From a virus, in the IMG/VR virus record IMGVR_UViG_3300031541_000022, positions 41,155-105,154 of that record: 64,000 nucleotides of DNA, one strand, 5' to 3'. A program made the position numbers and the translations under genes. Position 1 is the stretch's first letter. The number at the start of each line of letters is the position of its first letter. Under the pieces are notes generated by a model that was not told the origin of the DNA, ran no database searches, and saw only the letters and a list, made by a program, of their open reading frames with translations. Shown here piece after piece: positions 5,218-55,523 of the stretch.

Positions 5218-6774
5218 ATGTCCGTAAACACAGACCTAGTCAAGAAGCCGTATACCACGGAGTCATTGACACAGAGTGAATTGCGTGAATTAGCACTTTG
5301 CTCAATTAATCCGCTTTACTTCATTAGAAACTATTGTTACATTCAGCATCCTACCAAAGGTAGGATGCCCTTCACCCTTTTTGATTACCAGGAAGGGCTC
5401 ATTAACAGTTATAACGATTACCGCTACTCAATCAGCCTTCTCAGCCGCCAGACTGGCAAGTCAACATGTGCGGCTGCATACTTGCTTTGGTTTGCAATGT
5501 TTAAGCCAGACAGCACAATCCTAGTTGCAGCACACAAGCGTGACGGCGCGCAAGAGATTATGACACGATTGCGTTATATGTATGAGAGTTGCCCAGACAA
5601 CATCAGAGCGGGCGTGACAGCGTATAACAAAGGATCATTAGAGTTTGACAACGGCAGCAAAATTATTGCACAAGCGACCACAGAAAACACCGGACGCGGT
5701 TTGTCACTCTCACTAGTTTACTTGGACGAATTTGCATTCGTTCCACCTAGAGTTGCAGAGGAGTTTTGGACCTCTATTTCACCTACACTTAGCACCGGTG
5801 GTAAGTGTATCATTACTTCAACCCCAAACCAAGATGACGACCAGTTTGCACAAATTTGGAAACAGGCTAACAAGCGTGTTGATGATTATGGCAATGAAAC
5901 TGAAGTCGGCACCAATGGTTTCCGTCCATATTTGGTTAAATGGGATCAGCACCCAGATCGTAACCAAGAGTGGGCAGATGCGGAACGCGCAAAGATTGGT
6001 GATGAGCGTTTCCGTCGTGAACATGAATGCGAGTTTATTGCGTTCGACGAAACATTGATCAACTCCGTTTTCCTAAGCGAAATGGATTTGGGAATGGAAC
6101 CCATGCGCAAGCATGGTCAAGTTCGTTGGTATGACACCATACAAGACGATCAGACATATCTAGTGGCACTAGATCCTAGCCTAGGAACAGGCGGCGACCC
6201 GGCTGCTATTCAAATATTTGCTATTCCTGGAATGCGCCAGGTTGGTGAATGGCAACACAATAAGACACCAGTTCAAATGCAGATCAAAATATTGAAGAGT
6301 ATTCTGGAAGAAATTGAAAGTGAAGCACTGAATAGTGAGATCTACTATAGCGTAGAAAACAATACGCTAGGTGAAGCAGCACTTGTTTCTATCGATGAAA
6401 TGGGTGAGGAAGAACTTCCAGGAACCTTCCTTAGCGAGCCGAAACGTCGGGGTAACGTAAGGCGCTTCAGAAAAGGATTTAATACGACACACTCCACGAA
6501 ATTGGCAGCATGTGCCAAACTGAAGAGATGGGTTGAAGAAGAAACAATGAAGATTCGCAGTAAGAATCTCACTCGCGAGCTTAAAACATTCGTGGCCAGG
6601 GGGAACAGCTATGCAGCCAAGGAGGGAGAAACAGACGATTTGGTCATGGCAACCCTTTTGGCTGTCCGCATGGCGATGCAGATTGCAAAATATGACGAAG
6701 AGGCGTTTCAGGATTTGAAGGATAGCTTTGACGAAACAGAACTGCGTCGACCTATGCCTATCGGAATACTGTGA
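5218..6774 (+). CDS. terL: Terminase large subunit (T4 gp17-like)
   Basis: Walker A SRQTGKST, Walker B VYLDEFAF, TSTP motif, RNase H-like nuclease VALDPSLG and DDLVMA. Confidence 0.95.
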   Translation: MSVNTDLVKKPYTTESLTQSELRELALCSINPLYFIRNYCYIQHPTKGRMPFTLFDYQEGLINSYNDYRYSISLLSRQTGKSTCAAAYLLWFAMFKPDSTILVAAHKRDGAQEIMTRLRYMYESCPDNIRAGVTAYNKGSLEFDNGSKIIAQATTENTGRGLSLSLVYLDEFAFVPPRVAEEFWTSISPTLSTGGKCIITSTPNQDDDQFAQIWKQANKRVDDYGNETEVGTNGFRPYLVKWDQHPDRNQEWADAERAKIGDERFRREHECEFIAFDETLINSVFLSEMDLGMEPMRKHGQVRWYDTIQDDQTYLVALDPSLGTGGDPAAIQIFAIPGMRQVGEWQHNKTPVQMQIKILKSILEEIESEALNSEIYYSVENNTLGEAALVSIDEMGEEELPGTFLSEPKRRGNVRRFRKGFNTTHSTKLAACAKLKRWVEEETMKIRSKNLTRELKTFVARGNSYAAKEGETDDLVMATLLAVRMAMQIAKYDEEAFQDLKDSFDETELRRPMPIGIL

Positions 6775-6777
6775 TTG

Positions 6778-6785
6778 TATAAATA
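6778..6785 (+). promoter_or_regulatory. T4-late-like promoter, leaderless
   Basis: TATAAATA-N5-ATG(6791), no SD. Confidence 0.7.
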
Positions 6786-6790
6786 TCATT

Positions 6791-8113
6791 ATGGTAACAG
6801 CGGTAGAAAACATTGCAGAACAACTATTCAAAACCATTAAAGGTTTTGGACACAACATAGTCATGTTTACAGATGACGGTAAAAAGACTGTAGACCCAAC
6901 AGAAGCACGCCGCTTCTATGCGAAGGATATTCGCATGATGGTCAATCTCATTGTTGATGAGACAACTAATGAGATTGTTGTTAACTTGAGCCAAGATACT
7001 GATCTTGAAGAGGTTAAGCCAATGTTGGCCGCTATAAGAAATCTAGCCAACCGTCACATTATTGAGTACACATTAAAGACATTTGGCAAAAATATTGAAC
7101 CCAGGGACTTCGCATACATGGCAAAAAATAAAGTAGATGAAGGCTTCAGCGGCTGGCATGGGTCAGCGCGTAAAAGCGTAAACGAACTAGGAGATGCCCG
7201 CATCATCGTCAAGCACAAACGCAGCGTTGACGAAGAGAAGCGCGGCGCCCGCACACGACAGATTGAAAGCATTTTCATTGAGAACGCAGAAGGTGAACGC
7301 TTTAAGTTTCCAAGCACAAACATCACCGCAGCTAAGGCAATGGCACGTCACGTACAAGAAGGCGGCGCACCATTTGATGACTTTGGTCAGCACATCTACG
7401 GTATCATGGAAGAGCTAAACCAACTCAAGAAATTCCACCGTAAGAGCAGCCGTAACGACTTCTTTGAAGATGCATCAGTAAATGAAGAGATTGGGTCACA
7501 CATCGGCAACCTACGCGGCAGCCTCAAGTCAATGTCAACACCACGAGGTTACAAAACTGCAATGGAAAGCTATGTCAAGGAGCAGGAAGATGTATCACAA
7601 GAGCGCATTGATGAGCTCAAGGATGCAGCTACAGTCAGCTACTTCGACGAGAGCATTGCAGACAGCCTACCATATGTTGCGCGTGTGATTGAGACAATGC
7701 GCGGACGTCAGGCTAAAGAAGCTGAGATCATGGACCTAGCACAATATGTGATGGACAACAAAGACAACATTCAGTTAAACTCACCAATTGACAATGCAGA
7801 TCCAGAAAGCCCAGCAGCACGTAGATTCCGTGATCCTGCAACAGCGTTTGCAGCATGGGTTACATACCTTGCACCAAAGATAAAGGACGACATGCTAGCT
7901 AACAAGCTAATGAAGGCAGCAGACTTTGTCCATGAGGTTGGTGACAAGCATTTGAGAATGGCTGCGGCGGCACTTAACGTGATCCGCCAAAAGGCACAGG
8001 TTGCGGAAGCAACCGACATTGGCGAAGAAAAAGTGGATGTCGAAGAGCAAGAAATAGCTAGAATCGACGAAACATTTGCTAAATACCACGTACAAAAGAT
8101 ATTCGGTGCTTGA
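6791..8113 (+). CDS. Hypothetical late (probable virion) protein
   Basis: Long ORF; start reassigned to ATG 6791 after the late promoter. Confidence 0.7.
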   Translation: MVTAVENIAEQLFKTIKGFGHNIVMFTDDGKKTVDPTEARRFYAKDIRMMVNLIVDETTNEIVVNLSQDTDLEEVKPMLAAIRNLANRHIIEYTLKTFGKNIEPRDFAYMAKNKVDEGFSGWHGSARKSVNELGDARIIVKHKRSVDEEKRGARTRQIESIFIENAEGERFKFPSTNITAAKAMARHVQEGGAPFDDFGQHIYGIMEELNQLKKFHRKSSRNDFFEDASVNEEIGSHIGNLRGSLKSMSTPRGYKTAMESYVKEQEDVSQERIDELKDAATVSYFDESIADSLPYVARVIETMRGRQAKEAEIMDLAQYVMDNKDNIQLNSPIDNADPESPAARRFRDPATAFAAWVTYLAPKIKDDMLANKLMKAADFVHEVGDKHLRMAAAALNVIRQKAQVAEATDIGEEKVDVEEQEIARIDETFAKYHVQKIFGA

Positions 8114-19486: not shown

Positions 19487-19819
19487 ATGAAAAAGATGTA
19501 CATTGCAGTATTGGACGAAGTGCCTGACTTTATGGTGCCTACTTTGGTTGCTCACAGTGTGATCAATGCCCATATTGAATTTGAGCGCGAGCCTGAGTAT
19601 GAAGATTGGCTGGACAATAGCTTTAAAAAGGTCACTGTCCGTGTTAACCGCAAAGAGTTTGCCAAGCTGCAAGACACCGCACTGCCGCTATGGCTAGGGC
19701 ACGAGAACACAACACTCAATGCAGAGAAAAGCTGCATCGTTGTATTTCCTGTAGAAGACGAACATCGGCCAAATGTGCTCAAGTTTGCTAAGATGTGGTC
19801 ACCAAAATGCCCGGACTGA
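19487..19819 (+). CDS. Peptidyl-tRNA hydrolase, Pth2-like
   Basis: KMYIAV.D...VAHS...W....FKKV.VRV pattern of phage Pth2 proteins. Confidence 0.6.
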   Translation: MKKMYIAVLDEVPDFMVPTLVAHSVINAHIEFEREPEYEDWLDNSFKKVTVRVNRKEFAKLQDTALPLWLGHENTTLNAEKSCIVVFPVEDEHRPNVLKFAKMWSPKCPD

Positions 19820-46753: not shown

Positions 46754-47056
46754 ATGCGAGAATTTCCCTGTAAACTAATCCGAGTTGTCAACGGCAACAC
46801 GGTTGAAGCTACTTTTGACCTTTGCTTCGGGGTCTATATGCCTATGAATATTAGGCTTTACGGAGTTGAGCAGACTGATGAGGCAATGGGAGCCCTCATC
46901 AAATTACTGCCACGTGAGTTTATCTGCGAAACCACATACAACCGTCGCGGCAAGGCAGGCCGTTGCTTGGGACAGATCTACAAGGTCGAACCAGACGGAA
47001 CTAAAATAAATATCAACGAACTATTGATAGATCATGGATATGGCTTAAAAACCTGA
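46754..47056 (+). CDS. SNase/thermonuclease-fold protein, probably inactive
   Basis: RVVNGNTV, IRLYGVE, GRCLG; start at ATG 46754 with SD GAGGA. Confidence 0.6.
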   Translation: MREFPCKLIRVVNGNTVEATFDLCFGVYMPMNIRLYGVEQTDEAMGALIKLLPREFICETTYNRRGKAGRCLGQIYKVEPDGTKININELLIDHGYGLKT

Positions 47057-48549
47057 TGAAATTTATATTTGGTATTTGGACAGCGATCGTCGCTCTGGCG
47101 GTCAGCGTAGTTGCTGCATACTACAGTATCGTGGGACTTACTGCGATCTTCGCTGCGGCTGTCATTCCAATCATTATCATGGGTGTAACACTTGAAGTTG
47201 CCAAAGTCACCGCAGCAATATATCTGCATAGCTTTTGGGAACAAACAAGCTTCTTGATCAAATTATACCTTGTGCCCGCTGTGGTTATACTCATGTTGAT
47301 TACAAGCATGGGTATCTTTGGCTTCCTGTCCAAAGCACATATTGAACAAGCTGCTAGCAGTGGTGGCTTGGTAGCACAAATTGAGCGTATAGACGAAAAT
47401 GTGTTGCGTCAGCAGCAAATTATCGAACGTGCCAATGTAACAATAGAAGGCTTTGGAGAGCGTGTCGCTGAGGCAGACACGGATATACAAGGTCGTATTG
47501 AAGCGCAGGAACGTATTATTGCTGATACAAGTACACGCTTAGAACGTGACATTGCCGTGCAAAATGAACTAATTGCACAGCAGAACGGCAATCTTCAGCC
47601 GCTACAAGAAGAACTAGATCGTATTAGAACACAACGAGACGAGCTATCAGCAGCACAAGCGGCTAATGATGTTCGTGCACTACAAGCACTGGTTGGCGCA
47701 GATGTAGATGGTGTGTTGGGCAGTCAGACACGTCAGCGTATTGCTGAATTTGGCTCCGCACTGGATGTACGTCAGCGTGAAATACTAGACAGACTAGACG
47801 CAGCGGCAGCGACAGAAAACCCTGCCGTGACCGCCGCCCGTGCCGAGATAACACGCCTACAACAGTCAGCAAATGCCGAGATTGCACGAGCACAAGACGC
47901 CATCCAAGCGTTCCGCACACAGCTAATCAATGTCACAACAGTGGACAACACAGCAGATATTGCAGCACAGGAAGACGTTATCAACCAAGCAAACGAACAG
48001 ATTGGTACACTGCTAGATCAAAAGTTTGAATTGGAAGGTGAGTTGCGCGTGTTGGAAGCTGAGGTTGGGCCAGTGCGTTATATTGCAGAGCTCATTTACG
48101 GTGAGACTAACAAAGAGTTGCTAGAAGAAGCAGTGCGTTGGGTTATCATTGTATTGGTTCTAGTATTTGATCCACTTGCTATTGTGCTCATTCTAGCAGG
48201 CATTGCACTGTTACGTCCAGAAGACACAGAACCTGTTGACAAAGCAGCAAAAATACCGCATAATGAGGAAACATCAGAAGGACCGGAAACACGAGTTCAA
48301 TCAGACGAGACAGATAACCTACCTAAAGAGAACGAAGAACGCGCCCCGGACTTAACAGTAGAAGTTACCGCTAAAGAAACAGCGGAACCGTTATCAGAAA
48401 CGCAGAAGGATATAGAGCAAAGCGCGAGCCCGTTAGACACTCAAGACGCACATGATAGGGCACCTTTTGCAAAAGCTAACCCTCACGCACCTCCAGGAGA
48501 GGTTCTAGTGAAGGGACACACATTCAACAGGTCACCAGATGAAAACTAA
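47056..48549 (+). CDS. Multi-pass membrane protein with long coiled coil
   Basis: Several N-terminal hydrophobic helices, long heptad region, internal DGVLGSQT, one C-terminal TM, acidic tail. Confidence 0.75.
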   Translation: MKFIFGIWTAIVALAVSVVAAYYSIVGLTAIFAAAVIPIIIMGVTLEVAKVTAAIYLHSFWEQTSFLIKLYLVPAVVILMLITSMGIFGFLSKAHIEQAASSGGLVAQIERIDENVLRQQQIIERANVTIEGFGERVAEADTDIQGRIEAQERIIADTSTRLERDIAVQNELIAQQNGNLQPLQEELDRIRTQRDELSAAQAANDVRALQALVGADVDGVLGSQTRQRIAEFGSALDVRQREILDRLDAAAATENPAVTAARAEITRLQQSANAEIARAQDAIQAFRTQLINVTTVDNTADIAAQEDVINQANEQIGTLLDQKFELEGELRVLEAEVGPVRYIAELIYGETNKELLEEAVRWVIIVLVLVFDPLAIVLILAGIALLRPEDTEPVDKAAKIPHNEETSEGPETRVQSDETDNLPKENEERAPDLTVEVTAKETAEPLSETQKDIEQSASPLDTQDAHDRAPFAKANPHAPPGEVLVKGHTFNRSPDEN

Positions 48550-48976
48550 AAATTCGGTGTATACCGTTACACCGCCGGACCTCACCCTTAACACGATTGG
48601 TCCCAGTGTCTTGCTCTTGGGCATTACATATGATGAGAGCAAAGCATACTCAGATGTATATGAAAAACTTTTTCCTGAAGTTGAAATCACATTCTTTGTG
48701 AGTGAGACTGGCTTCAATCCAAATGTTGCTCCTTGGTTCCGCGCAGTTGCAGGAATGGCGAGCAGCATATTTGTAAACCTAGACAACATCACAGCAGAGG
48801 AAGTATTCCTTGCTATGCAAGCTGAACATGAGAACCGTGCTATGGTTTTCTGGATCAGCCAAGAGCGAACCTATCCAGCGATGGTGAGTTTACTCAACAG
48901 TTACCAATACCAAGTTTTCAATAACGTAGAAGAGATTGAATCCTTCTTGCTAAAAGAGCATGGTAAAAACTCTTGA
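48539..48976 (+). CDS. Hypothetical protein
   Basis: Coupled ORF. Confidence 0.7.
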   Translation: MKTKNSVYTVTPPDLTLNTIGPSVLLLGITYDESKAYSDVYEKLFPEVEITFFVSETGFNPNVAPWFRAVAGMASSIFVNLDNITAEEVFLAMQAEHENRAMVFWISQERTYPAMVSLLNSYQYQVFNNVEEIESFLLKEHGKNS

Positions 48977-49001
48977 CATTCGGGTGCAGACATACTACAC
49001 T
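48973..49001 (+). promoter_or_regulatory. Sigma70-like promoter for infC-rpsU
   Basis: TTGACA-17-TACACT. Confidence 0.7.
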
Positions 49002-49040
49002 GAATGACATAGTTGTATTCAGAGGATTAGACCTATTAAT

Positions 49041-49562
49041 ATGAAACAACAGCGAGAAATTATACTCGCTAACCGTGACATTCGATTCAAGGAAGTTCGT
49101 TTAGTTACGGAAGCTGACAGCAAGGTGCTGTCAACGAATGAAGCATTGAGGCAAGCTGAAGACGCTGGCTTAGATCTTATTTTGATCAACGCTAGCGCCA
49201 AGCCTCCTGTTTGTAAGATCTTGGAATTGAACAAGTATCGTTACGAACAGAAACTAAAAGCGAAAGAAGCTGCACGGGCGCAGCGTGAATCCCGTACCAC
49301 TATCAAAGAGGTACAATTCAAGCCCAATATCGATCAACACGACTTCGAAACGAAGTGTAAGAAAATTGCTAAGTTTATCGACAAGGGCAACAAGGTTAAG
49401 GTTTTAATTCAATTTCGTGGTCGCGAACGCCAACACACTGATTTGGGATATGACATCCTAGAAAGAGTATTCCAGGAAGTTGACGGTATTGAATACGATG
49501 CAAAACCCTCTTTTGCTGGTAACCGTATTACCGCAATGTTAAAAGGAACCAAGGATGGCTAG
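49041..49562 (+). CDS. infC: Translation initiation factor IF-3 (possible ATT start at 49035)
   Basis: [24 protein letters not shown]...KYRYE, KEVQF.P.ID.HDF..K, KVK....FRGRE. Confidence 0.92.
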
Positions 49563-49800
49563 GCCAACACCAAATCAAAAGAAAACACAAAGCGGACCGC
49601 GCGGCTCAAGAGTCGAAGTCCGTGATAACAATGTAGGGCAGGCAATGCGCCGCCTAAAGAAGATCCTCCAACAGGAAGGTGTCTTCAAAGAGATGCGAGA
49701 ACGCCGTTACTTCGAAAAGCCAAGCATGACACGCAAAAAGGCTAAAGCAGCGGCTCGCAAGCGTTGGCTTAAGGAACAGGCCAAGCGCGAAAACTGGTAA
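49555..49800 (+). CDS. rpsU: 30S ribosomal protein S21
   Basis: [17 protein letters not shown]....EG...E...R.YFEKPS...K..A.RKR. Confidence 0.88.
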
Positions 49801-49811
49801 TAAATACCAGC

Positions 49812-49864
49812 AGGATGCCTTAGGGGTCCTATAAAAATCTTGCTTTTAAAAGGAGATTAAGATG
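49812..49864 (+). ncRNA. ROSE-like RNA thermometer in the hsp20 5' UTR, behind late promoter ATAAATA 49800-49806
   Basis: 5' hairpin 49812-49830; 3' hairpin AATCTTGCTT/AAGGAGATT pairs the UUGCU motif with the SD and leaves G49842 bulged. Confidence 0.75.
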
Positions 49865-50290
49865 ACAAAAGCAATTAACACACTAACTCTACCGAGCTTC
49901 CTCAATGACAGAGGTATTGGATTTGACAACTTTCTTGACACATTCGAGACACTCACTCCAAGCGGTGGATACCCTCCATACAACGTGATTAAAGACGGCG
50001 ACGACGAATACACTATCGAAGTTGCAGTTGCTGGCTTTACACAAGACGATCTGGAGATCACACAGGACGGCAAAAAGCTAATCCTATCTGCAAACAAGCC
50101 AGAGTTCGAAGGCGAAGAGCCTGCATACTTGCATCGCGGCATCAGCTCACGTAGCTTTAAGCGTGAGTTTGCACTTGCAGAACATGTAACAGTCACTGGT
50201 GCTGACCTCAAAGATGGCATCCTCAAAGTTTCATTACTACGTGAATTGCCAGAAGAAATGAAGCCACGCACCATCGCTATCGGCAAATAA
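49862..50290 (+). CDS. hsp20: Small heat-shock protein (Hsp20/IbpA-like)
   Basis: YPPYNV, IEVAVAGF, YLHRGIS.RSF.R.F.LA, A.L.DGIL. Confidence 0.93.
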   Translation: MTKAINTLTLPSFLNDRGIGFDNFLDTFETLTPSGGYPPYNVIKDGDDEYTIEVAVAGFTQDDLEITQDGKKLILSANKPEFEGEEPAYLHRGISSRSFKREFALAEHVTVTGADLKDGILKVSLLRELPEEMKPRTIAIGK

Positions 50291-50360
50291 TTACTGAGCG
50301 ATCATCAGTACCACTGTGGGAGGTGGCTACCACTACCTCCCACAACCAAAAGAGGGCAAT

Positions 50361-50660
50361 ATGTCAGCAGACGCAGACGTAGTCGAAAAAACACAAACCA
50401 AACTCAAGCGTCCACGTAAATGGGCGGTGATTGTACATAACGATGACGTAACTCCAATGGACTTTGTTGTTGGGTTGCTCTTTTACGTATTTAAAATGAA
50501 CCTTGATGAAGCTACAGGACTGATGCTCAAGGTACATCAAGAAGGCCAAGCAGTGGCTGGCATCTTCTCCCATGAGGTTGCAGAACAAAAGCTTGCGGAA
50601 GCCAATGTGTTCATCCGTTTGAGCAACATGCAACTGAAGTTGACTATGGAAGAAGAATAA
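50361..50660 (+). CDS. clpS: ClpS N-degron adaptor
   Basis: VIVHNDDVTPMDFVV...A..LML.VH..G.A..G; start at ATG 50361. Confidence 0.9.
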   Translation: MSADADVVEKTQTKLKRPRKWAVIVHNDDVTPMDFVVGLLFYVFKMNLDEATGLMLKVHQEGQAVAGIFSHEVAEQKLAEANVFIRLSNMQLKLTMEEE

Positions 50661-50661
50661 C

Positions 50662-50687
50662 GCTCGCATAAATATACACATGCGAGC
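50662..50687 (+). promoter_or_regulatory. Late promoter in the loop of a hairpin that sequesters the ATG; leaderless
   Basis: GCTCGCAT(50662-69)...ATGCGAGC(50680-87) perfect 8-bp IR; ATAAATA 50668-74, N5, ATG. Confidence 0.7.
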
Positions 50688-52077
50688 CTTAGAATTTTTA
50701 CTATCAGAAGAACAGGTGACTGAATCGCGCGGCGTAAGTGCAAGACAGCCTGGTGACGTATATGTCAACCCAAACAGCCCTGACGATACACTCACTGTTA
50801 TCGATATCAAATTTGTGCGACCAGAAAACGACTACGCATTTGACAGTCGTGAAGAACTGGAAGGCGCACTAGACCAAGTCATCCCCTCAGACATGAAGCG
50901 TGTAAATGACAACGCAGCTAACAGATTAAGTAAGGCTGCAATTGTTGCTGAGTTTGAACGTCCTGATGGTAGCAAGGAAGCCCATGTCCGTTATGCCAAG
51001 GATCTTATGTCTATGCATAACAAATGGAAGGCTCCAAATGGTTATAAATTCCAAGCAGCAATTGAAACTGAAAGCTTGCCAATCAAGCCAAGCGACATCA
51101 TTCCAGATGAACAGCCACGCAAATTGCTAAAATTGCTTGATGTTATCGATCAAAACCTACGCACCAAGCTAGCAGGCACTCCATATGAACATATGGGTGA
51201 CTTGATTGAACAGGTAATTGACAGCGCAGCAGGTAGCAACAAACCTATTACATTTGAAAACCGTAACCAAGCAGGCATCATTGCAAAATATGCTGGCGAG
51301 TATGCAGGTGTGGTTGCGTTGCTTACCGATAACCTACAAAACCTCAGCAGTGCTGAAATTGAAGAACGTTATGGCGTAAGCAACCTGTCAGATAGTCGTG
51401 TTGTGTTTCCACAAGACAGCACAGGTATGTTGATTGATAGCTATCTCATTACTCCCGAAGACAAGCGTATTGGCGTGAGCAGCAAAATGTTTAAAGCTGG
51501 TGGTGCAGCTAGCAGCCTACTAGGTATCTACAAGATCATGCCACCTGACGTTGCAAAACAATATCCTAAAGGTGCAACTATCATTAAGGACTTGTCTGTG
51601 ATGCCTAGCTTCTCAGTTAGCCCTAAAAATGCTAGTAACCTTGGCCCAGTCATATTGGCACGCCAAATGGGAATTATCAGCGCAGAAGACATTGAAGAGA
51701 TCGAACGCCTATCCCGCCACGAACAAAATCCAGAGGTAATGCAAAGCCATCGACTCAAGCAAATTATTGCTAACCAAGGTGTAAACCCTGGCACTATGAG
51801 TCGACCAGACTACTCTGTCTATAACCATCTTATTGCGGCGATTGTCAACCTCATGGTATCACGAGTCAATAACGAACCTGAATTTGTTGATGTGATTAAC
51901 GCAACACTACGTGAAAACGGATATGTGCAGGTGCTAACCAAGGTTGGCCTCAAGGGTAACCAGGTTACGTTTACCTATTATGGCAAGTTGCCAGACGACA
52001 ATCAACCATTCATCTACAACAAAAATTATTTCGCTACAGGCAATAAAGGACGTATTGGTTTCAAACTCAAGAAGTGA
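50680..52077 (+). CDS. Hypothetical probable head-packaged protein
   Basis: MRALEFL...VTE/SRG N-terminus; late promoter. Confidence 0.75.
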   Translation: MRALEFLLSEEQVTESRGVSARQPGDVYVNPNSPDDTLTVIDIKFVRPENDYAFDSREELEGALDQVIPSDMKRVNDNAANRLSKAAIVAEFERPDGSKEAHVRYAKDLMSMHNKWKAPNGYKFQAAIETESLPIKPSDIIPDEQPRKLLKLLDVIDQNLRTKLAGTPYEHMGDLIEQVIDSAAGSNKPITFENRNQAGIIAKYAGEYAGVVALLTDNLQNLSSAEIEERYGVSNLSDSRVVFPQDSTGMLIDSYLITPEDKRIGVSSKMFKAGGAASSLLGIYKIMPPDVAKQYPKGATIIKDLSVMPSFSVSPKNASNLGPVILARQMGIISAEDIEEIERLSRHEQNPEVMQSHRLKQIIANQGVNPGTMSRPDYSVYNHLIAAIVNLMVSRVNNEPEFVDVINATLRENGYVQVLTKVGLKGNQVTFTYYGKLPDDNQPFIYNKNYFATGNKGRIGFKLKK

Positions 52078-52078
52078 T

Positions 52079-52501
52079 ATGTATACAGGCTTTGTTTATA
52101 AATGGACATACATTCCTACCTCTCATTATTATATTGGGATCCATAAAGGACACATCGACGATGGATATATTGGTTCTGGAAAAAAATTTCAAGCAAAATG
52201 GAAATTAACAGAAGCCAAAGATTGGGTTCGTGATATCCTCTTCAAATGTGAATACCAAGACTGCATCGACTTTGAAGGGAATTCCGTAACAGAAGAAACA
52301 CTCAAAGATACACTTTGTTTAAATTTACAGCCTGGCGGCGGCAAATATTATGAGCCATATGGATTCACGCATAAAGATAAAAGTTATCGCACAAAACCAC
52401 AACAGGTTACAATAAATGGAACGACTTATCCGACACGTATGATGGCAATAAAACGTTTGAAAGTTTCTTTTGCTGAACTTGACGAACTAATAGAATATTA
52501 A
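52079..52501 (+). CDS. Short Seg-like GIY-YIG endonuclease
   Basis: GFVYKWT....YYIGIHKG...GYIGSG...CLNL; start at ATG 52079. Confidence 0.7.
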   Translation: MYTGFVYKWTYIPTSHYYIGIHKGHIDDGYIGSGKKFQAKWKLTEAKDWVRDILFKCEYQDCIDFEGNSVTEETLKDTLCLNLQPGGGKYYEPYGFTHKDKSYRTKPQQVTINGTTYPTRMMAIKRLKVSFAELDELIEY

Positions 52502-52603
52502 GAATACAATTTAGCAAATCGTTACTGAGCTATGCACACAGATGCAGGACGGTATGTTTAATTTGCAGTTGTGAATCCCCTGACTTTATTGTAAATATGT
52601 ATG

Positions 52604-52626
52604 TGCAGGTGCAGCATTTAGCTGCA
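52604..52626 (+). promoter_or_regulatory. TGC-rich operator-like site upstream of the microprotein operon
   Basis: TGC-AGGT-GCAG plus overlapping IR TGCAGC-N5-GCTGCA; TAAATA at 52592-97. Confidence 0.4.
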
Positions 52627-52654
52627 TTTATTTTTGAGCACAAGGAATAAATCA

Positions 52655-52792
52655 ATGTCATTTCTAAAATCACTATTCGTAAACAAAAAAGCCGCACGAA
52701 AAGACATTCGTCGTTACGTAGAGGCAGAATACGCTCCAGTAGAGCGTGAAGCGGCTTATGACCGCCTCATCCGTGAAGCAGGCTTTTTATAA
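52655..52792 (+). CDS. Microprotein A (45 aa)
   Basis: SD AAGGA; MSFLKSLFVNKKAARKDIRRYVEAEYAPVEREAAYDRLIREAGFL. Confidence 0.75.
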   Translation: MSFLKSLFVNKKAARKDIRRYVEAEYAPVEREAAYDRLIREAGFL

Positions 52793-52953
52793 TGGCCCTG
52801 CTTCGTTATTTTAAAGACGTGTTTGGTGACGAACGTTGTATGTCTCGTCGCCAGCGCGATATCGAAAATTACCTAGCCCAATCCGTGGACTTGGTAGATC
52901 TAGAACGCCGCCAACGCGAACTAGATCGTAAGGGAGCGTACCGTTGGCTATAA
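52792..52953 (+). CDS. Microprotein B (53 aa), DUF3563-like
   Basis: TAATG coupling; ...NYLAQSVDLVDLERRQRELDR... resembles the recalled xYL/DLE motifs of DUF3563. Confidence 0.75.
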   Translation: MALLRYFKDVFGDERCMSRRQRDIENYLAQSVDLVDLERRQRELDRKGAYRWL

Positions 52954-53075
52954 TCACGGACTTCCTAACATCATTGCGACGCGCTATCTATGCAGCGAAC
53001 TACCTAGAAGGCGCAACAACTCGACAGGAGTTCGAGCAGCGCGTCGCAACACTACAAGAACAAGGATACATCTAA
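52944..53075 (+). CDS. Microprotein C (43 aa)
   Basis: TTG start after SD AAGGGAG; NYLEGATTRQEFEQR echoes microprotein B. Confidence 0.65.
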   Translation: MAIITDFLTSLRRAIYAANYLEGATTRQEFEQRVATLQEQGYI

Positions 53076-53194
53076 TGAGCTTTTGGAAAAAGATTGAACG
53101 CCTGGGCTACTTGCGCGCCGCAGGTGAAATGAAGCGAAACGGTTACCCCGACCTCGCTGCGGAAATGGAAAAGCAAGCACGTAACTTGAAGTGA
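53075..53194 (+). CDS. Microprotein D (39 aa)
   Basis: TAATG coupling; MSFWKKIERLGYLRAAGEMKRNGYPDLAAEMEKQARNLK. Confidence 0.7.
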   Translation: MSFWKKIERLGYLRAAGEMKRNGYPDLAAEMEKQARNLK

Positions 53195-53219
53195 GCCTTG
53201 CGCTCACTTCCTTCTTTTT
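53191..53219 (+). terminator. Terminator closing the microprotein operon
   Basis: GTGAGC-CTTGC-GCTCAC followed by a pyrimidine/T tract. Confidence 0.6.
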
Positions 53220-53248
53220 GATAAGTAATGGTGAAGAGAGGTAACACT

Positions 53249-53803
53249 ATGTCTATCACCAATTACGAAGGCAAAATACTTATTGCATCACCACAAATCA
53301 CATCCACAATCTTTCGTAAGAGTGTGGTGTATATTCATACACATAACGAGAAAGAAGGGGCAATTGGTGTAATGTTAAACGTCCCTGTTGAGATTGAAGC
53401 GGCTGAAAGATTTTCTCATGATATCAATTGGCCATACCCAGACCGTATCTACCATGGCGGTCCAGTAGACTACCGCATTGGCTACGTTATTCATTCAAAT
53501 GATTATGCACGTGAGTCGTCCATCAAAATCAACGACGATATGAGCTATACAAGTGGACGTCATATTGTAGACGACATCAACCGCGGTGTTGGTCCAAACG
53601 ACTATATCCTAGCAACTGGCTATTGTGGTTGGAAGCCAGGTCAACTTGAAAATGAAGTAGATAGCGGCATGTGGGTAGCAGTTGACTATGACAAAGACTT
53701 CTTCTTCCAGAACCTTGATCGCGAGCACGGACACGAATTTGCAATCAATGTTGCCGCAGAAAATAAAACAAATCAGCTTCTAGATATGGTTGACACAGCC
53801 TGA
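53249..53803 (+). CDS. YqgE/AlgH (DUF179)-family protein
   Basis: GKILIA.P....FRKSVV....H...GAIGVMLN, YHGGPV, G..GW..GQL..E....W. Confidence 0.85.
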   Translation: MSITNYEGKILIASPQITSTIFRKSVVYIHTHNEKEGAIGVMLNVPVEIEAAERFSHDINWPYPDRIYHGGPVDYRIGYVIHSNDYARESSIKINDDMSYTSGRHIVDDINRGVGPNDYILATGYCGWKPGQLENEVDSGMWVAVDYDKDFFFQNLDREHGHEFAINVAAENKTNQLLDMVDTA

Positions 53804-53842
53804 TCACTCTGCTAAAACAATAGTCGCAGTAGGGAGCGACAA

Positions 53843-54001
53843 ATGTTTGAAGTTATCATCCAAAAGAACGATGGAACCAAAGAAACGTGGGATTGTCTCA
53901 CGGAAATACAGGCTGAGTGTGTGTTCTTTCGCGCACGTATGATGAACACCACAGCACAAGTGCAAATCAACGAGGTGATTGAGTTTGACATCATTAGCTG
54001 A
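53843..54001 (+). CDS. Untracked 52-aa hypothetical protein
   Basis: SD GGGAG; MFEVIIQKNDGTKETW... Confidence 0.55.
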   Translation: MFEVIIQKNDGTKETWDCLTEIQAECVFFRARMMNTTAQVQINEVIEFDIIS

Positions 54002-54422
54002 ATCATTTGGCTATGTGCCTATGCGTGTTGATCTCATTATGACTCTGCTCCGTATCCAAGCAGAAAAGGTATTAGATCAATCCAAAAACCACACAGTATT
54101 TGAGCGAATTGAATATTTGACCTATATTGAAAAACAGCGTATTGAACCCGATCGATTTCAAAATGTTTATATGACGGTTTTGTTCATACAGTATTCAAAA
54201 CCACATCTCAAGCGTATTCAAAAATTGACAGCAGAAGATCTTGCTCAAATGTCAAAATCATCTGTATATACAGCAAACTCTATTATTAAACTTACTGGCA
54301 GGAATCCGGTTTATCTTAAAGACCGTGATCTCGGAACTCGTGGTAATATTGACGCCGAACAAAGCCGCGATATTTTTAACGCAGACCTCAATAAGTGGAT
54401 GAAACACTTCCAGGCACGATAA
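53979..54422 (+). CDS. Hypothetical protein (start uncertain)
   Basis: Fills the gap on the coding strand. Confidence 0.55.
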   Translation: MSLTSLAESFGYVPMRVDLIMTLLRIQAEKVLDQSKNHTVFERIEYLTYIEKQRIEPDRFQNVYMTVLFIQYSKPHLKRIQKLTAEDLAQMSKSSVYTANSIIKLTGRNPVYLKDRDLGTRGNIDAEQSRDIFNADLNKWMKHFQAR

Positions 54423-54457
54423 ATACTAGACCCAATAGGGGGAAAAGGAGATTTATC
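54418..54457 (+). promoter_or_regulatory. Late promoter complementary to the sequence just before the ATG
   Basis: GATAAAT(54418-24) pairs with ATTTATC(54451-57); ATAAATA 54419-25. Confidence 0.5.
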
Positions 54458-54649
54458 ATGTTTGACGCAATTTGGGCTTGGCTAATGGCTCGCTGGGCAG
54501 AACGCACAACCTGGGATGGTACAGTAATCATCGGTCTAGGTGTTGTGGTGCTTGTATTCCAATCACTACTACCTTGGGCAGCATGGGGCGCAATCGCTTA
54601 CGGTGTTTGGACCTTACTCAAGTCAGAAGGCATCCTTCCTAAGGAATAA
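54458..54649 (+). CDS. Small two-TM membrane protein
   Basis: SD AAGGAG; ERTTWDG followed by two hydrophobic helices. Confidence 0.7.
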   Translation: MFDAIWAWLMARWAERTTWDGTVIIGLGVVVLVFQSLLPWAAWGAIAYGVWTLLKSEGILPKE

Positions 54650-54650
54650 G

Positions 54651-54755
54651 ATGAAACCTGGCACTTATAAAAAACTGAAGCACGAATTCGGACAGCTCAT
54701 TTTCTGGGCGATTGTGTTCGGAATCGTGCTTCTTGGTCTTGCATTGTTTGCATAA
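54651..54755 (+). CDS. 34-aa single-TM peptide
   Basis: SD AAGGA; basic N-terminus plus hydrophobic helix. Confidence 0.55.
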   Translation: MKPGTYKKLKHEFGQLIFWAIVFGIVLLGLALFA

Positions 54756-54763
54756 ATAATTGC

Positions 54764-54979
54764 ATGGCAGCAAACGGTATATCAACACTAGAATTTAAGC
54801 GTGACCGTCAGGACGCAAAGCTTGCACTTGCGGCAGTTGATCGTCTGGCCACAGGCCGCCGTAGCAATCCTGATCCAACACAACTACCAACACGCTACGG
54901 CGTTGGTAGCAACGATCCAAACGATATTGTAAATAACCCTAACGCAGGCGGACTTGTTACAGGTCGTTCTTGGACATAA
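54764..54979 (+). CDS. Small late protein (leaderless)
   Basis: ATAAATA(54752-58)-N5-ATG; MAANGISTL... Confidence 0.7.
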   Translation: MAANGISTLEFKRDRQDAKLALAAVDRLATGRRSNPDPTQLPTRYGVGSNDPNDIVNNPNAGGLVTGRSWT

Positions 54980-54984
54980 AGTTC

Positions 54985-55015
54985 TTGACTTAACTGCTCA
55001 CTTCATGTATAAATA
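54985..55015 (+). promoter_or_regulatory. Composite early/late promoter for tmRNA
   Basis: TTGACT-17-TATAAA overlapping TATAAATA (55008-15). Confidence 0.7.
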
Positions 55016-55020
55016 GGACT

Positions 55021-55320
55021 GTATTGATGACGTTCATCATGACGTAGGACGGACCGGGGTTCAATTCCCCGCACCTCCACCAAAATCTGACTGGTGCTTG
55101 ACATCATCGAGGTAGTGCTCGTGAACAACTGGATGAAGATTACTATGGGGGTGAGTTTGGGATCGACGTATGCTGATAGGTGAAAAGAGATGCCCGGATC
55201 TAAGCTCGGTTAACGCGAAGAAACTTACAAATGCAAACGAAAACTTTGCACCTACAGGATATGCCCTAGCGGCTTAACCTAGTGGCGCCCGGGGAGAGCG
55301 TAGCAACAGAATCTCCTCAT
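55021..55320 (+). ncRNA. ssrA: Circularly permuted two-piece tmRNA
   Basis: Acceptor piece first (T-arm CGGGG-TTCAATT-CCCCG, CACCTCC-A-CCA ending 55082), 64-nt spacer, then coding piece GGGGGTG from 55147 (G3-U70 pair); tag ANENFAPTGYALAA* at 55233-55277. Confidence 0.92.
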
Positions 55321-55328
55321 TTTCTATC

Positions 55329-55523
55329 ATGCATACAGATTACTATGTTTATGAATATCTAAGAGAAGACGGTTCTCCGTATTATGTAGGCAAGGGCCGT
55401 TGTGGACGTCACAAAGAACGTCACAATGTTCCGATTCCACCAGAAGATCGTATCAAAGTAGCAATGCATGTAGAGGTCGTTACAGAAAGTTTCAACCATC
55501 TTAGAGCACCTTTATGCGAATAG
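55329..55523 (+). pseudogene. Truncated GIY-YIG endonuclease
   Basis: YYVYEYLREDGSPYYVGKG.G.R, then loses similarity and stops at 64 aa. Confidence 0.7.

Follow-up and report, generated by a model that had tools for sequence, protein, structure and literature searches.

Does a virus that carries genes for translation initiation, ribosome rescue, protein holding and proteolysis within a few kilobases use them as one coordinated apparatus, or do these genes travel together as separate parts? The question is raised by a 64-kb stretch of DNA (the window; bases 41155-105154 of the 110,390-bp linear IMG/VR viral contig IMGVR_UViG_3300031541_000022), in which infC, rpsU, hsp20 and clpS, encoding translation initiation factor IF3, ribosomal protein bS21, a small heat-shock protein (sHsp) and the N-degron adaptor of ClpA, lie in succession and are followed at some distance by a transfer-messenger RNA (tmRNA). 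An earlier reading of this DNA from its letters (the sequence-only reading) had proposed that these genes, together with a Pth2 protein elsewhere in the window, rewire host protein quality control as a coordinated suite. We consider it likely, instead, that the stretch represents the form taken here by an accessory gene block, vertically inherited in Rak2/PA5oct-like jumbo myophages, whose members form separate expression units. The ancestral order, as far as it can be read from the relatives, appears to have been orf497-clpX-infC-rpsU-(variable insert)-hsp20-clpS; a permuted tmRNA would have been no more than ~10 kb away, and ClpA and ClpP would have been encoded elsewhere.

This view derives foremost from comparison with related loci. 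A ClpS profile search of IMG/VR yielded 249 relatives, and the counts given in the following are from the best 80 loci, which represent 53-58 distinct ClpS clusters at 80-95% identity. Hsp20 is encoded directly upstream of clpS in 73 of these 80 loci, almost always with a spacer of -30 to +60 nt; S21 (58 loci), orf497 (46), ClpX (31) and IF3 (24) are also found upstream of clpS, always in the same gene order and on the same strand, orf497-clpX-infC-rpsU-...-hsp20-clpS, while the distance between S21 and Hsp20 ranges from 0.06 to ~8 kb. Single-protein searches of IMG/VR gave nine loci with the order orf497-(x)-IF3-S21-Hsp20-ClpS, at 35-80% protein identity. In a complete relative of 342.6 kb (G004), a ClpX with a zinc finger is encoded directly before IF3, a ClpA-like protein of 738 residues (Clp_N and two AAA modules) and two ClpP-like proteins are encoded at a distance from the block (loci L019, at G004:C1:14562-18053, L025 and L028), and a permuted tmRNA lies 11 kb upstream of it; this relative thus possesses its own ClpX, ClpA, ClpP and ClpS. 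The sub-clade of the present phage has no clpX at the syntenic position, which is occupied by a 145-codon open reading frame (ORF). Dozens of divergent phage lineages share this order, and cultured phages show it too, so that the block genes are no chance neighbourhood; within the window, the four proteins and the tmRNA are intact. The distance matrices of ClpS, Hsp20 and S21 are correlated (Mantel r 0.58-0.73, p = 0.001), which fits co-inheritance and is no evidence of functional co-evolution.

As for the phage itself, the contig is estimated by CheckV to be about 30% complete; the plausible genes of the window all lie on the plus strand, and Pfam and PHROG matches in the contig include a T4-type large terminase (TerL), gp32, UvsX, a DnaB-like helicase and virion proteins. 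Since its TerL is nearest, among cultured phages, to those of PA5oct (54% identity) and of Phosso and Atu_ph07 (53%), followed by GAP32/Rak2-like phages (~46%), we take the contig to be, in all likelihood, a fragment of a Rak2/PA5oct-like jumbo myophage. The "Moraphages" (PMC12619734), considered as another candidate lineage, were ruled out, being a separate lineage with predicted Bacteroidota hosts. A megablast search with 8 kb from the region gave no match in the phage collection, and no tRNA genes were found in the 110-kb contig.

The block can be followed into three cultured phages. PA5oct (Pseudomonas phage vB_PaeM_PA5oct, MK797984; Arenbergviridae) agrees with the window in gene order and strand, its genes EST35_0255-0260 encoding ClpX, S21, two hypothetical proteins, a heat-shock protein and ClpS, and it too has TTGAC/TATAATA host-type promoters (PMC7318152); it differs in having no infC in the block and FtsH nearby, and its ClpS is 34% identical to that of the present phage. 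In the cultured marine jumbo phage Vibrio phage 2.275.O._10N.286.54.E11 (MG592671; NVP2275O_041-047), genes for IF-3, RpsU and a ClpS-like protein follow each other after a P-loop NTPase; here, no Hsp20 is encoded between S21 and ClpS (35% identical), and a KTSC-domain protein comes next. Sinorhizobium phage Phosso, finally, has the arrangement sHsp-TK (thymidine kinase)-ClpS with RRF and ThrRS nearby and a permuted tmRNA, and S21 was not seen beside ClpS within the stretch examined. Agrobacterium phage Atu_ph07, like Phosso a Rak2-like jumbo phage of alphaproteobacteria, encodes ClpX, ClpA, ClpB, ClpP and ClpS (PMC6102473); both differ from the present phage in their much larger genomes (469-490 kb), their tRNA synthetases and RRF, and the wider dispersal of the genes. 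All of PA5oct, Vibrio phage 2.275.O and Phosso, being in culture, lend themselves to functional tests.

The sequence-only reading was correct in stating that each gene type is known from large phages, and their combination is not novel either. ClpS, Hsp20, IF3 and Pth2 have been reported for jumbo phages by Iyer et al. 2021 (PMC7824862), IF3, S21, tmRNA and SmpB are listed for huge phages by Al-Shayeb et al. 2020 (PMC7162821), and Attai et al. described seven Clp-family genes in Atu_ph07 (PMC6102473); in a survey of 900 phage genomes, Hsp20 (n = 127) and Clp genes (n = 50 and 47) ranked among the commonest neighbours of bS21 (Chen et al. 2022, PMC9723584). The block is thus conserved and not new, given its existing annotation in both PA5oct and Vibrio phage 2.275.O and the published record of its gene types. 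The paper on PA5oct (PMC7318152) does not discuss its block genes, and in our literature search we found no description of the fixed order clpX-infC-rpsU-hsp20-clpS, of the near-invariant hsp20-clpS pair or of its structured spacer.

Before the individual units are considered, it has to be asked whether the genes belong to the phage at all, as they could also be recent host-derived passengers or bacterial contamination without a role in infection. All five do have close cellular counterparts, and hsp20 retains a ROSE-like leader of the ibpA type. The contig, however, is uniformly phage-like, with its genes on one strand and a T4-type TerL, gp32 and UvsX; the block genes are only 35-45% identical among phage relatives and are nevertheless syntenic and co-diverging, their functional residues are invariant, and their context is unlike that of bacterial clpS-clpA. 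A bacterial control with the ClpS profile pointed the same way: true bacterial contigs have clpS immediately followed by clpA, which marks the hsp20-clpS pairing of the phage-like contigs as a phage arrangement. By synteny, co-divergence, residue conservation and phage context, the passenger or contamination reading is refuted as far as comparative data allow, and we regard it as extremely improbable; the fixed order, kept over deep divergence in the Rak2/PA5oct group, argues that the genes are used. Three contigs from metagenome-assembled genomes, assigned to Ca. Neomarinimicrobiota RS350, Enterobacteriaceae and Chitinophagales, show the phage order orf497/ClpX-S21-Hsp20-ClpS (L158, PBPT01000016.1, 335 kb; L160; L153); these are probably jumbo-phage sequences that were mis-binned as bacterial.

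If the genes are used, are they used together? The first unit comprises infC and rpsU. infC (49041-49562, plus strand) encodes a protein of 173 residues with both the N- and the C-terminal domain of IF3 (Pfam IF3_N, 82.6 bits, E 2e-23; IF3_C, 96.3 bits, E 1e-27), which scores 158.8 bits against the NCBIfam equivalog TIGR00168 (cut-off 60) and is 69% identical to the copy in one relative (L002) and 40-43% identical to those in others (L004-L010). In-frame ATT codons precede its ATG (49017-49043), and the one at 49035 is located 8 nt after the Shine-Dalgarno sequence AGAGGA, as compared to 14 nt for the ATG at 49041; the true start codon is uncertain, because the ATT is better placed behind AGAGGA than the ATG. 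In bacteria, infC starts at AUU, which is the basis of its autoregulation. Unlike in the bacterial infC-rpmI-rplT operon, however, the next gene in the phage is not rpmI but rpsU (49555-49800, plus strand; 81 residues), with which the infC stop overlaps by 8 nt (ATGGCTAG), as read from the sequence. The predicted S21 matches Pfam Ribosomal_S21 over residues 20-70 (69 bits, cut-off 27) and TIGR00030 (68.2 bits, cut-off 28.95), and it carries an N-terminal extension of ~18 residues, of the kind that Al-Shayeb et al. have described for phage S21 (PMC7162821).

Upstream of this pair, at 48973-49001 and 40 nt 5' of infC on the plus strand, lies a sigma-70-like promoter motif, TTGACA-17-TACACT (10/12 match). 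Such sites are locally no more frequent than expected by chance; a TTGACn-17/18-TAnnnT element nevertheless keeps its position in six related loci (L037, L038, L039, L041, L044 and L086), where the spacer sequences differ, and in relatives without infC it stands before rpsU instead. A separate observation concerns a close relative (L003/L039, IMGVR_UViG_3300022689_000130) that has no infC, where rpsU directly follows orf145 and has its own TTGACA-17-TATAAT.

The motifs before hsp20 are of a different class. The control region of this gene (49799-49861, plus strand) begins with the T4-late-type sequence AATAAATA at 49799-49806, which matches the T4-type late consensus TATAAATA at 7 of 8 positions, and continues with a ROSE-like leader (49807-49861); the ATAAATA copy at 49800 overlaps the rpsU stop, 56 nt 5' of hsp20. 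ATAAATA occurs 20 times on the plus strand, in 16 cases at most 60 nt upstream of a gene start, where ~9% would be expected. As perfect TATAAATA sites precede a virion protein gene (6728-8113) and the gene for a fibre-like protein of 1303 residues, the ATAAATA/TATAAATA element behaves, at the level of motif matches, like a T4-type late promoter. Of the 73 relatives with hsp20 next to clpS, 62 have a TAAATA no further than 110 nt 5' of hsp20, mostly at -61 to -69.

hsp20 itself (49862-50290, plus strand) encodes an sHsp of 142 residues with a C-terminal I-A-I at residues 137-139, an I/L-x-I/V motif that is kept among relatives in our Hsp20 alignment (A5). It matches Pfam HSP20 with 58.7 bits (cut-off 20.8), and its best NCBIfam matches, IbpB and IbpA at 104 bits, fall below the equivalog cut-offs of 207-212; by these scores the phage protein is IbpA/B-like and not an equivalog. 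In its leader, TCTTGCT lies opposite the Shine-Dalgarno sequence AAGGAGAT, and a TYTTRCT..GGAG motif is present in 43 of 55 distinct hsp20 leaders, with the Shine-Dalgarno sequence paired in 41 of 49 minimum-free-energy (MFE) folds, while Rfam gave no match at gathering score. The leader motif suggests that the gene brought an ibpA-type thermosensor with it. The phage gene resembles bacterial ibpA, which has a ROSE thermometer, in its IbpA/B-like sHsp and apparently ROSE-like leader, but differs in its promoter, which is of the T4 late type instead of a heat-shock sigma type.

Behind hsp20, a GC-rich hairpin with a 12-bp stem (50315-50344, plus strand) separates the gene from clpS (50361-50660, plus strand; 99 residues; Pfam ClpS 86.3 bits, cut-off 23). 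The spacer has an MFE of -28.8 kcal/mol (z = -5.5), and among the relatives (loci L037-L116) 50 of 51 distinct spacers have z < -2, with a median free energy of -17.6 and a median z of -5; the hairpin is kept there as a structure and not as a sequence. In many relatives it is followed by a T-run and is hence terminator-like; in the present phage the T-run is absent. The most likely start of clpS is the ATG at 50361, because a GAGGG Shine-Dalgarno sequence precedes it and the longer GTG start (50316) would fall within the hairpin. No promoter motif of its own is present before clpS in this phage, and some relatives do have a TAAATA motif for clpS. In four loci (L052, L070, L094 and L095), TAAATA or TATAAATA is found 5-8 nt before the clpS ATG without a Shine-Dalgarno sequence, a leaderless-type arrangement that had been pointed out earlier for other genes of the window, such as orf465 (50668-50682 before the gene).

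In an alignment to the structures 1mbu and 3o2b, residues N27, D28, D29, T31, M33, M55 and H59 of phage ClpS correspond to N34, D35, D36, T38, M40, M62 and H66 of the E. coli protein, all seven being identical, and E72 and K77 align to the contacts of the E. coli ClpA N-domain, E79 and K84. The roles of these residues in the N-degron pocket and in ClpA contact are those given in the literature. In a set of 32 phage ClpS homologues, N27, D28, T31, H59 and E72 never vary, and conservation at D29 and K77 is at least 90%; the functional residues are under purifying selection. The core is preceded by ~18 residues, compared to 25 in E. coli ClpS (PMC8666677). The E. coli adaptor docks on the N-domain of ClpA, keeps ClpAP from acting on ssrA-tagged substrates and presents it with Phe/Leu/Trp/Tyr N-degron substrates (PMC8666677). 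With the ClpS of the bacterial clpS-clpA operon, the phage protein shares the pocket and ClpA-contact residues, while its gene comes after hsp20 and not with clpA.

The tightness of this pairing raises the possibility that hsp20 and clpS form a dedicated two-gene unit, in which proteins that unfold or aggregate late in infection are bound by the holdase and ClpS guides ClpA(P) to them, or in which ClpS regulates ClpA while the holdase protects virion proteins. Adjacency in 73 of the 80 loci, together with the structured spacer in nearly all distinct sequences, speaks for such a unit, as does the persistence of the pairing in PA5oct and, with a thymidine kinase gene in between, in Phosso, while bacterial clpS pairs with clpA instead. 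Moreover, ClpS reportedly promotes the attack of ClpAP on aggregates (Dougan 2002, as cited in PMC6102473), and in Salmonella ClpS is under the control of a different heat-shock protein, HspQ (PMC6719616). However, the adjacency can be explained by descent alone, the terminator-like hairpin of many relatives and the separate TAAATA motif of clpS in some indicate that co-expression is not required, and Vibrio phage 2.275.O has IF3, S21 and ClpS without Hsp20. A complex prediction for Hsp20 and ClpS from 32-row alignments gave no answer (score 0.07) and speaks neither for nor against the unit. On balance, we hold a dedicated unit to be rather unlikely.

Still, hsp20-hairpin-clpS is the tightest and least explained linkage in the block, and it seems to be the only lead here that has not been described. 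One could imagine it as a phage-specific, late and temperature-gated proteolysis switch, uncoupled from clpA, in which holdase and adaptor would choose the targets of ClpA(P) during virion building, with infC-rpsU tuning ribosomes for apparently leaderless late mRNAs; we consider this a long shot. The replacement of the bacterial clpS-clpA pairing by hsp20, a structured spacer and clpS is best seen as a modest, testable lead and not as a surprise.

The tmRNA is a permuted, two-piece molecule on the plus strand, with the acceptor piece before the coding piece, located at 54981-55321 by Rfam (RF04321, 101.4 bits, gathering 47; RF01849, 78.8 bits, gathering 50) and at 54987-55368 by ARAGORN, and it begins 4.3-4.4 kb past clpS. 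An ATAAATA copy lies directly before it, and a promoter motif TTGACT-17-TATAAATA spans 54985-55015. The acceptor piece ends in an encoded CCA (55080-55082; ACCA after CACCTCC); as read from the sequence, GGGGGTG (55147-55153) pairs with CACCTCC (55072-55078) to give a 7-bp acceptor stem with G3:U70. The tag ORF (55233-55277) encodes ANENFAPTGYALAA, followed by a TAA stop. The same permuted tmRNA is present in all six related IMG/VR records that were tested and in Phosso (L149, PV764938; 349596-350198, minus strand; RF04321 113 bits). Its position among relatives varies from 5 kb downstream to 10 kb upstream of the block. In 19 of the 80 loci, ARAGORN places it within 10 kb of clpS, and the encoded tags follow the pattern AN[DN]N...ALAA. 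PA5oct gave no tmRNA match with RF00023 or RF04321, and the one-piece model RF00023 returned only tRNA-level matches for both PA5oct and Phosso. Buchholz et al. 2022 (PMC9004378) showed that marine phages often have two-piece tmRNAs and cautioned against deducing the host from an alpha-type ssrA. Since family searches, run at default thresholds on the 110-kb contig, found no SmpB there, and none was found in five related records, one of them complete, SmpB must be supplied by the host. A 64-codon ORF (55329-55523) with a GIY-YIG-like N-terminus abuts the tmRNA 3' end and may be the remnant of a mobile endonuclease.

The individual observations on which the sequence-only reading had built therefore hold up well: infC and rpsU do overlap, with the IF3 and S21 domains above curated cut-offs, the early class that it assigned to their promoter and the late class assigned to that of hsp20 are both plausible as motif matches whose position is kept in relatives, clpS with an intact N-degron pocket does follow hsp20, and the tmRNA, found by ARAGORN and two Rfam models, begins where it was placed, 4.4 kb on. 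Its background statements, that ClpS turns ClpAP away from ssrA-tagged substrates towards N-degrons and that the LAA-ending tag is a signal for ClpXP, are right for E. coli (PMC8666677). What does not follow from these parts is the suite. In such a single programme, tmRNA would tag peptides for ClpXP, ClpS would block ClpAP from ssrA-tagged substrates and redirect it to N-degrons, and IF3, S21 and Pth2 would keep ribosomes and tRNAs cycling. In its favour, all components are present and intact, the tmRNA lies within ~10 kb of the block in relatives, which add ClpX directly upstream of infC as well as ClpA and ClpP elsewhere, and it is well established for E. coli that ClpS and ssrA-tagged substrates are antagonistic (PMC8666677). 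Yet the units differ in promoter class, infC-rpsU being early-type and hsp20 late-type; IF3, ClpX and S21 have been lost independently in many lineages, and the position of the tmRNA is not fixed; the Pth2 candidate is 30 kb away; PA5oct keeps S21-Hsp20-ClpS without a tmRNA match, no SmpB is encoded in the contig or the five relatives, and no mechanistic link joins the tag to ClpS. With only hsp20 and clpS tightly linked, a single programme appears quite unlikely to us. Because the temporal classes differ, the gap between S21 and Hsp20 varies and the tmRNA moves, and because IF3, ClpX and S21 were lost independently and PA5oct has the protein block without a tmRNA match, the comparison favours parts that would act on the same host systems as co-inherited but separate expression units, and not as a single regulated suite.

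How could such separate parts operate during infection? infC and rpsU would be transcribed early by the host sigma-70 RNA polymerase and their translation would be coupled; phage S21 and IF3 could then become part of host 30S subunits and make initiation favour phage mRNAs. Later, hsp20 would be transcribed from its T4-type promoter, with translation gated by the ROSE-like leader inherited with an ibpA-like gene, and its product may serve as a holdase while virion proteins are being made in bulk. clpS may be read through the hairpin from the hsp20 transcript, and phage ClpS would dock to host ClpA (to phage ClpA in relatives) and shift ClpAP from ssrA-tagged and directly recognised substrates to N-degrons. 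The tmRNA, charged by host AlaRS, would work with host SmpB to free stalled ribosomes, and its ...YALAA tag would be cleared mainly by ClpXP.

Several points weigh against this picture of co-inherited units. The promoter classes of infC-rpsU and hsp20 are assigned from motifs alone, and transcription could end at the hairpin before clpS, a gene that would then have no visible promoter in the present phage. Searches found no AAA_2 gene of the ClpA/ClpX type in the 110-kb contig, and ClpX, ClpA and ClpP are absent both from these 110 kb and from the 144 kb of a close relative; the partner of ClpS is thus assumed to be the host's or to be encoded in the unsampled 70% of the genome. Nor is the alpha-type ssrA proof of an alphaproteobacterial host, as the precedent of Melnitz illustrates (PMC9004378).

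For the remaining member of the proposed suite, the placement of a Pth2 in the window stands as far as the fold is concerned, while the family assignment falls short of the Pfam cut-off. The only candidate is a protein of 110 residues (19487-19819, plus strand; phrog_5822), which matches Pfam PTH2 with 14 bits (E = 0.004; cut-off 23); a PTH2 family search at default thresholds found nothing in the contig. A profile of its family retrieves 1rlk first from the PDB (E = 0.002), its AlphaFold (AF2) model has a pLDDT of 95.3, and Foldseek matches it to every solved Pth2 (3erj, 1rlk, 1q7s, 2zv3, 1xty and 1wn2) at TM 0.72-0.79; the top 13 matches are without exception Pth2 or Bit1 structures, the majority aligning over their full length at TM 0.7-0.8. 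According to the model, the ORF thus appears to encode a divergent protein of the Pth2 fold. The catalytic lysine of Pth2 lies in a G-K motif, a role that goes back to work on the S. solfataricus enzyme. In the profile alignment to 1rlk, however, the lysine of KGK aligns with a Met that is conserved in the phage family, which makes enzymatic activity uncertain, and the family, with its invariant D14, H23, K48 and E73, may have a different chemistry or substrate. As no similarity was detected by BLASTP to the above-threshold PTH2 of one relative (G003), the two represent different lineages of the Pth2 fold. A Pfam scan around the gene revealed neighbours without translation-related context.

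Among the surrounding genes, orf497 (47056-48549, plus strand) heads the block and, as noted above, has homologues upstream in more than half of the loci. It encodes a multi-pass membrane protein with a long coiled coil, for which we found no PHROG or NCBIfam match; the only Pfam signal, weak and below threshold, is to Tetraspanin. In the interval from clpS to the tmRNA lies the gene for a YqgE/AlgH-like (DUF179) protein (53228-53803, plus strand; Pfam DUF179, 118 bits), which is found downstream only in the closest sub-clade (6 of the 80 loci), and the ORF at 51944-52501 is homing-endonuclease-like (phrog_314).

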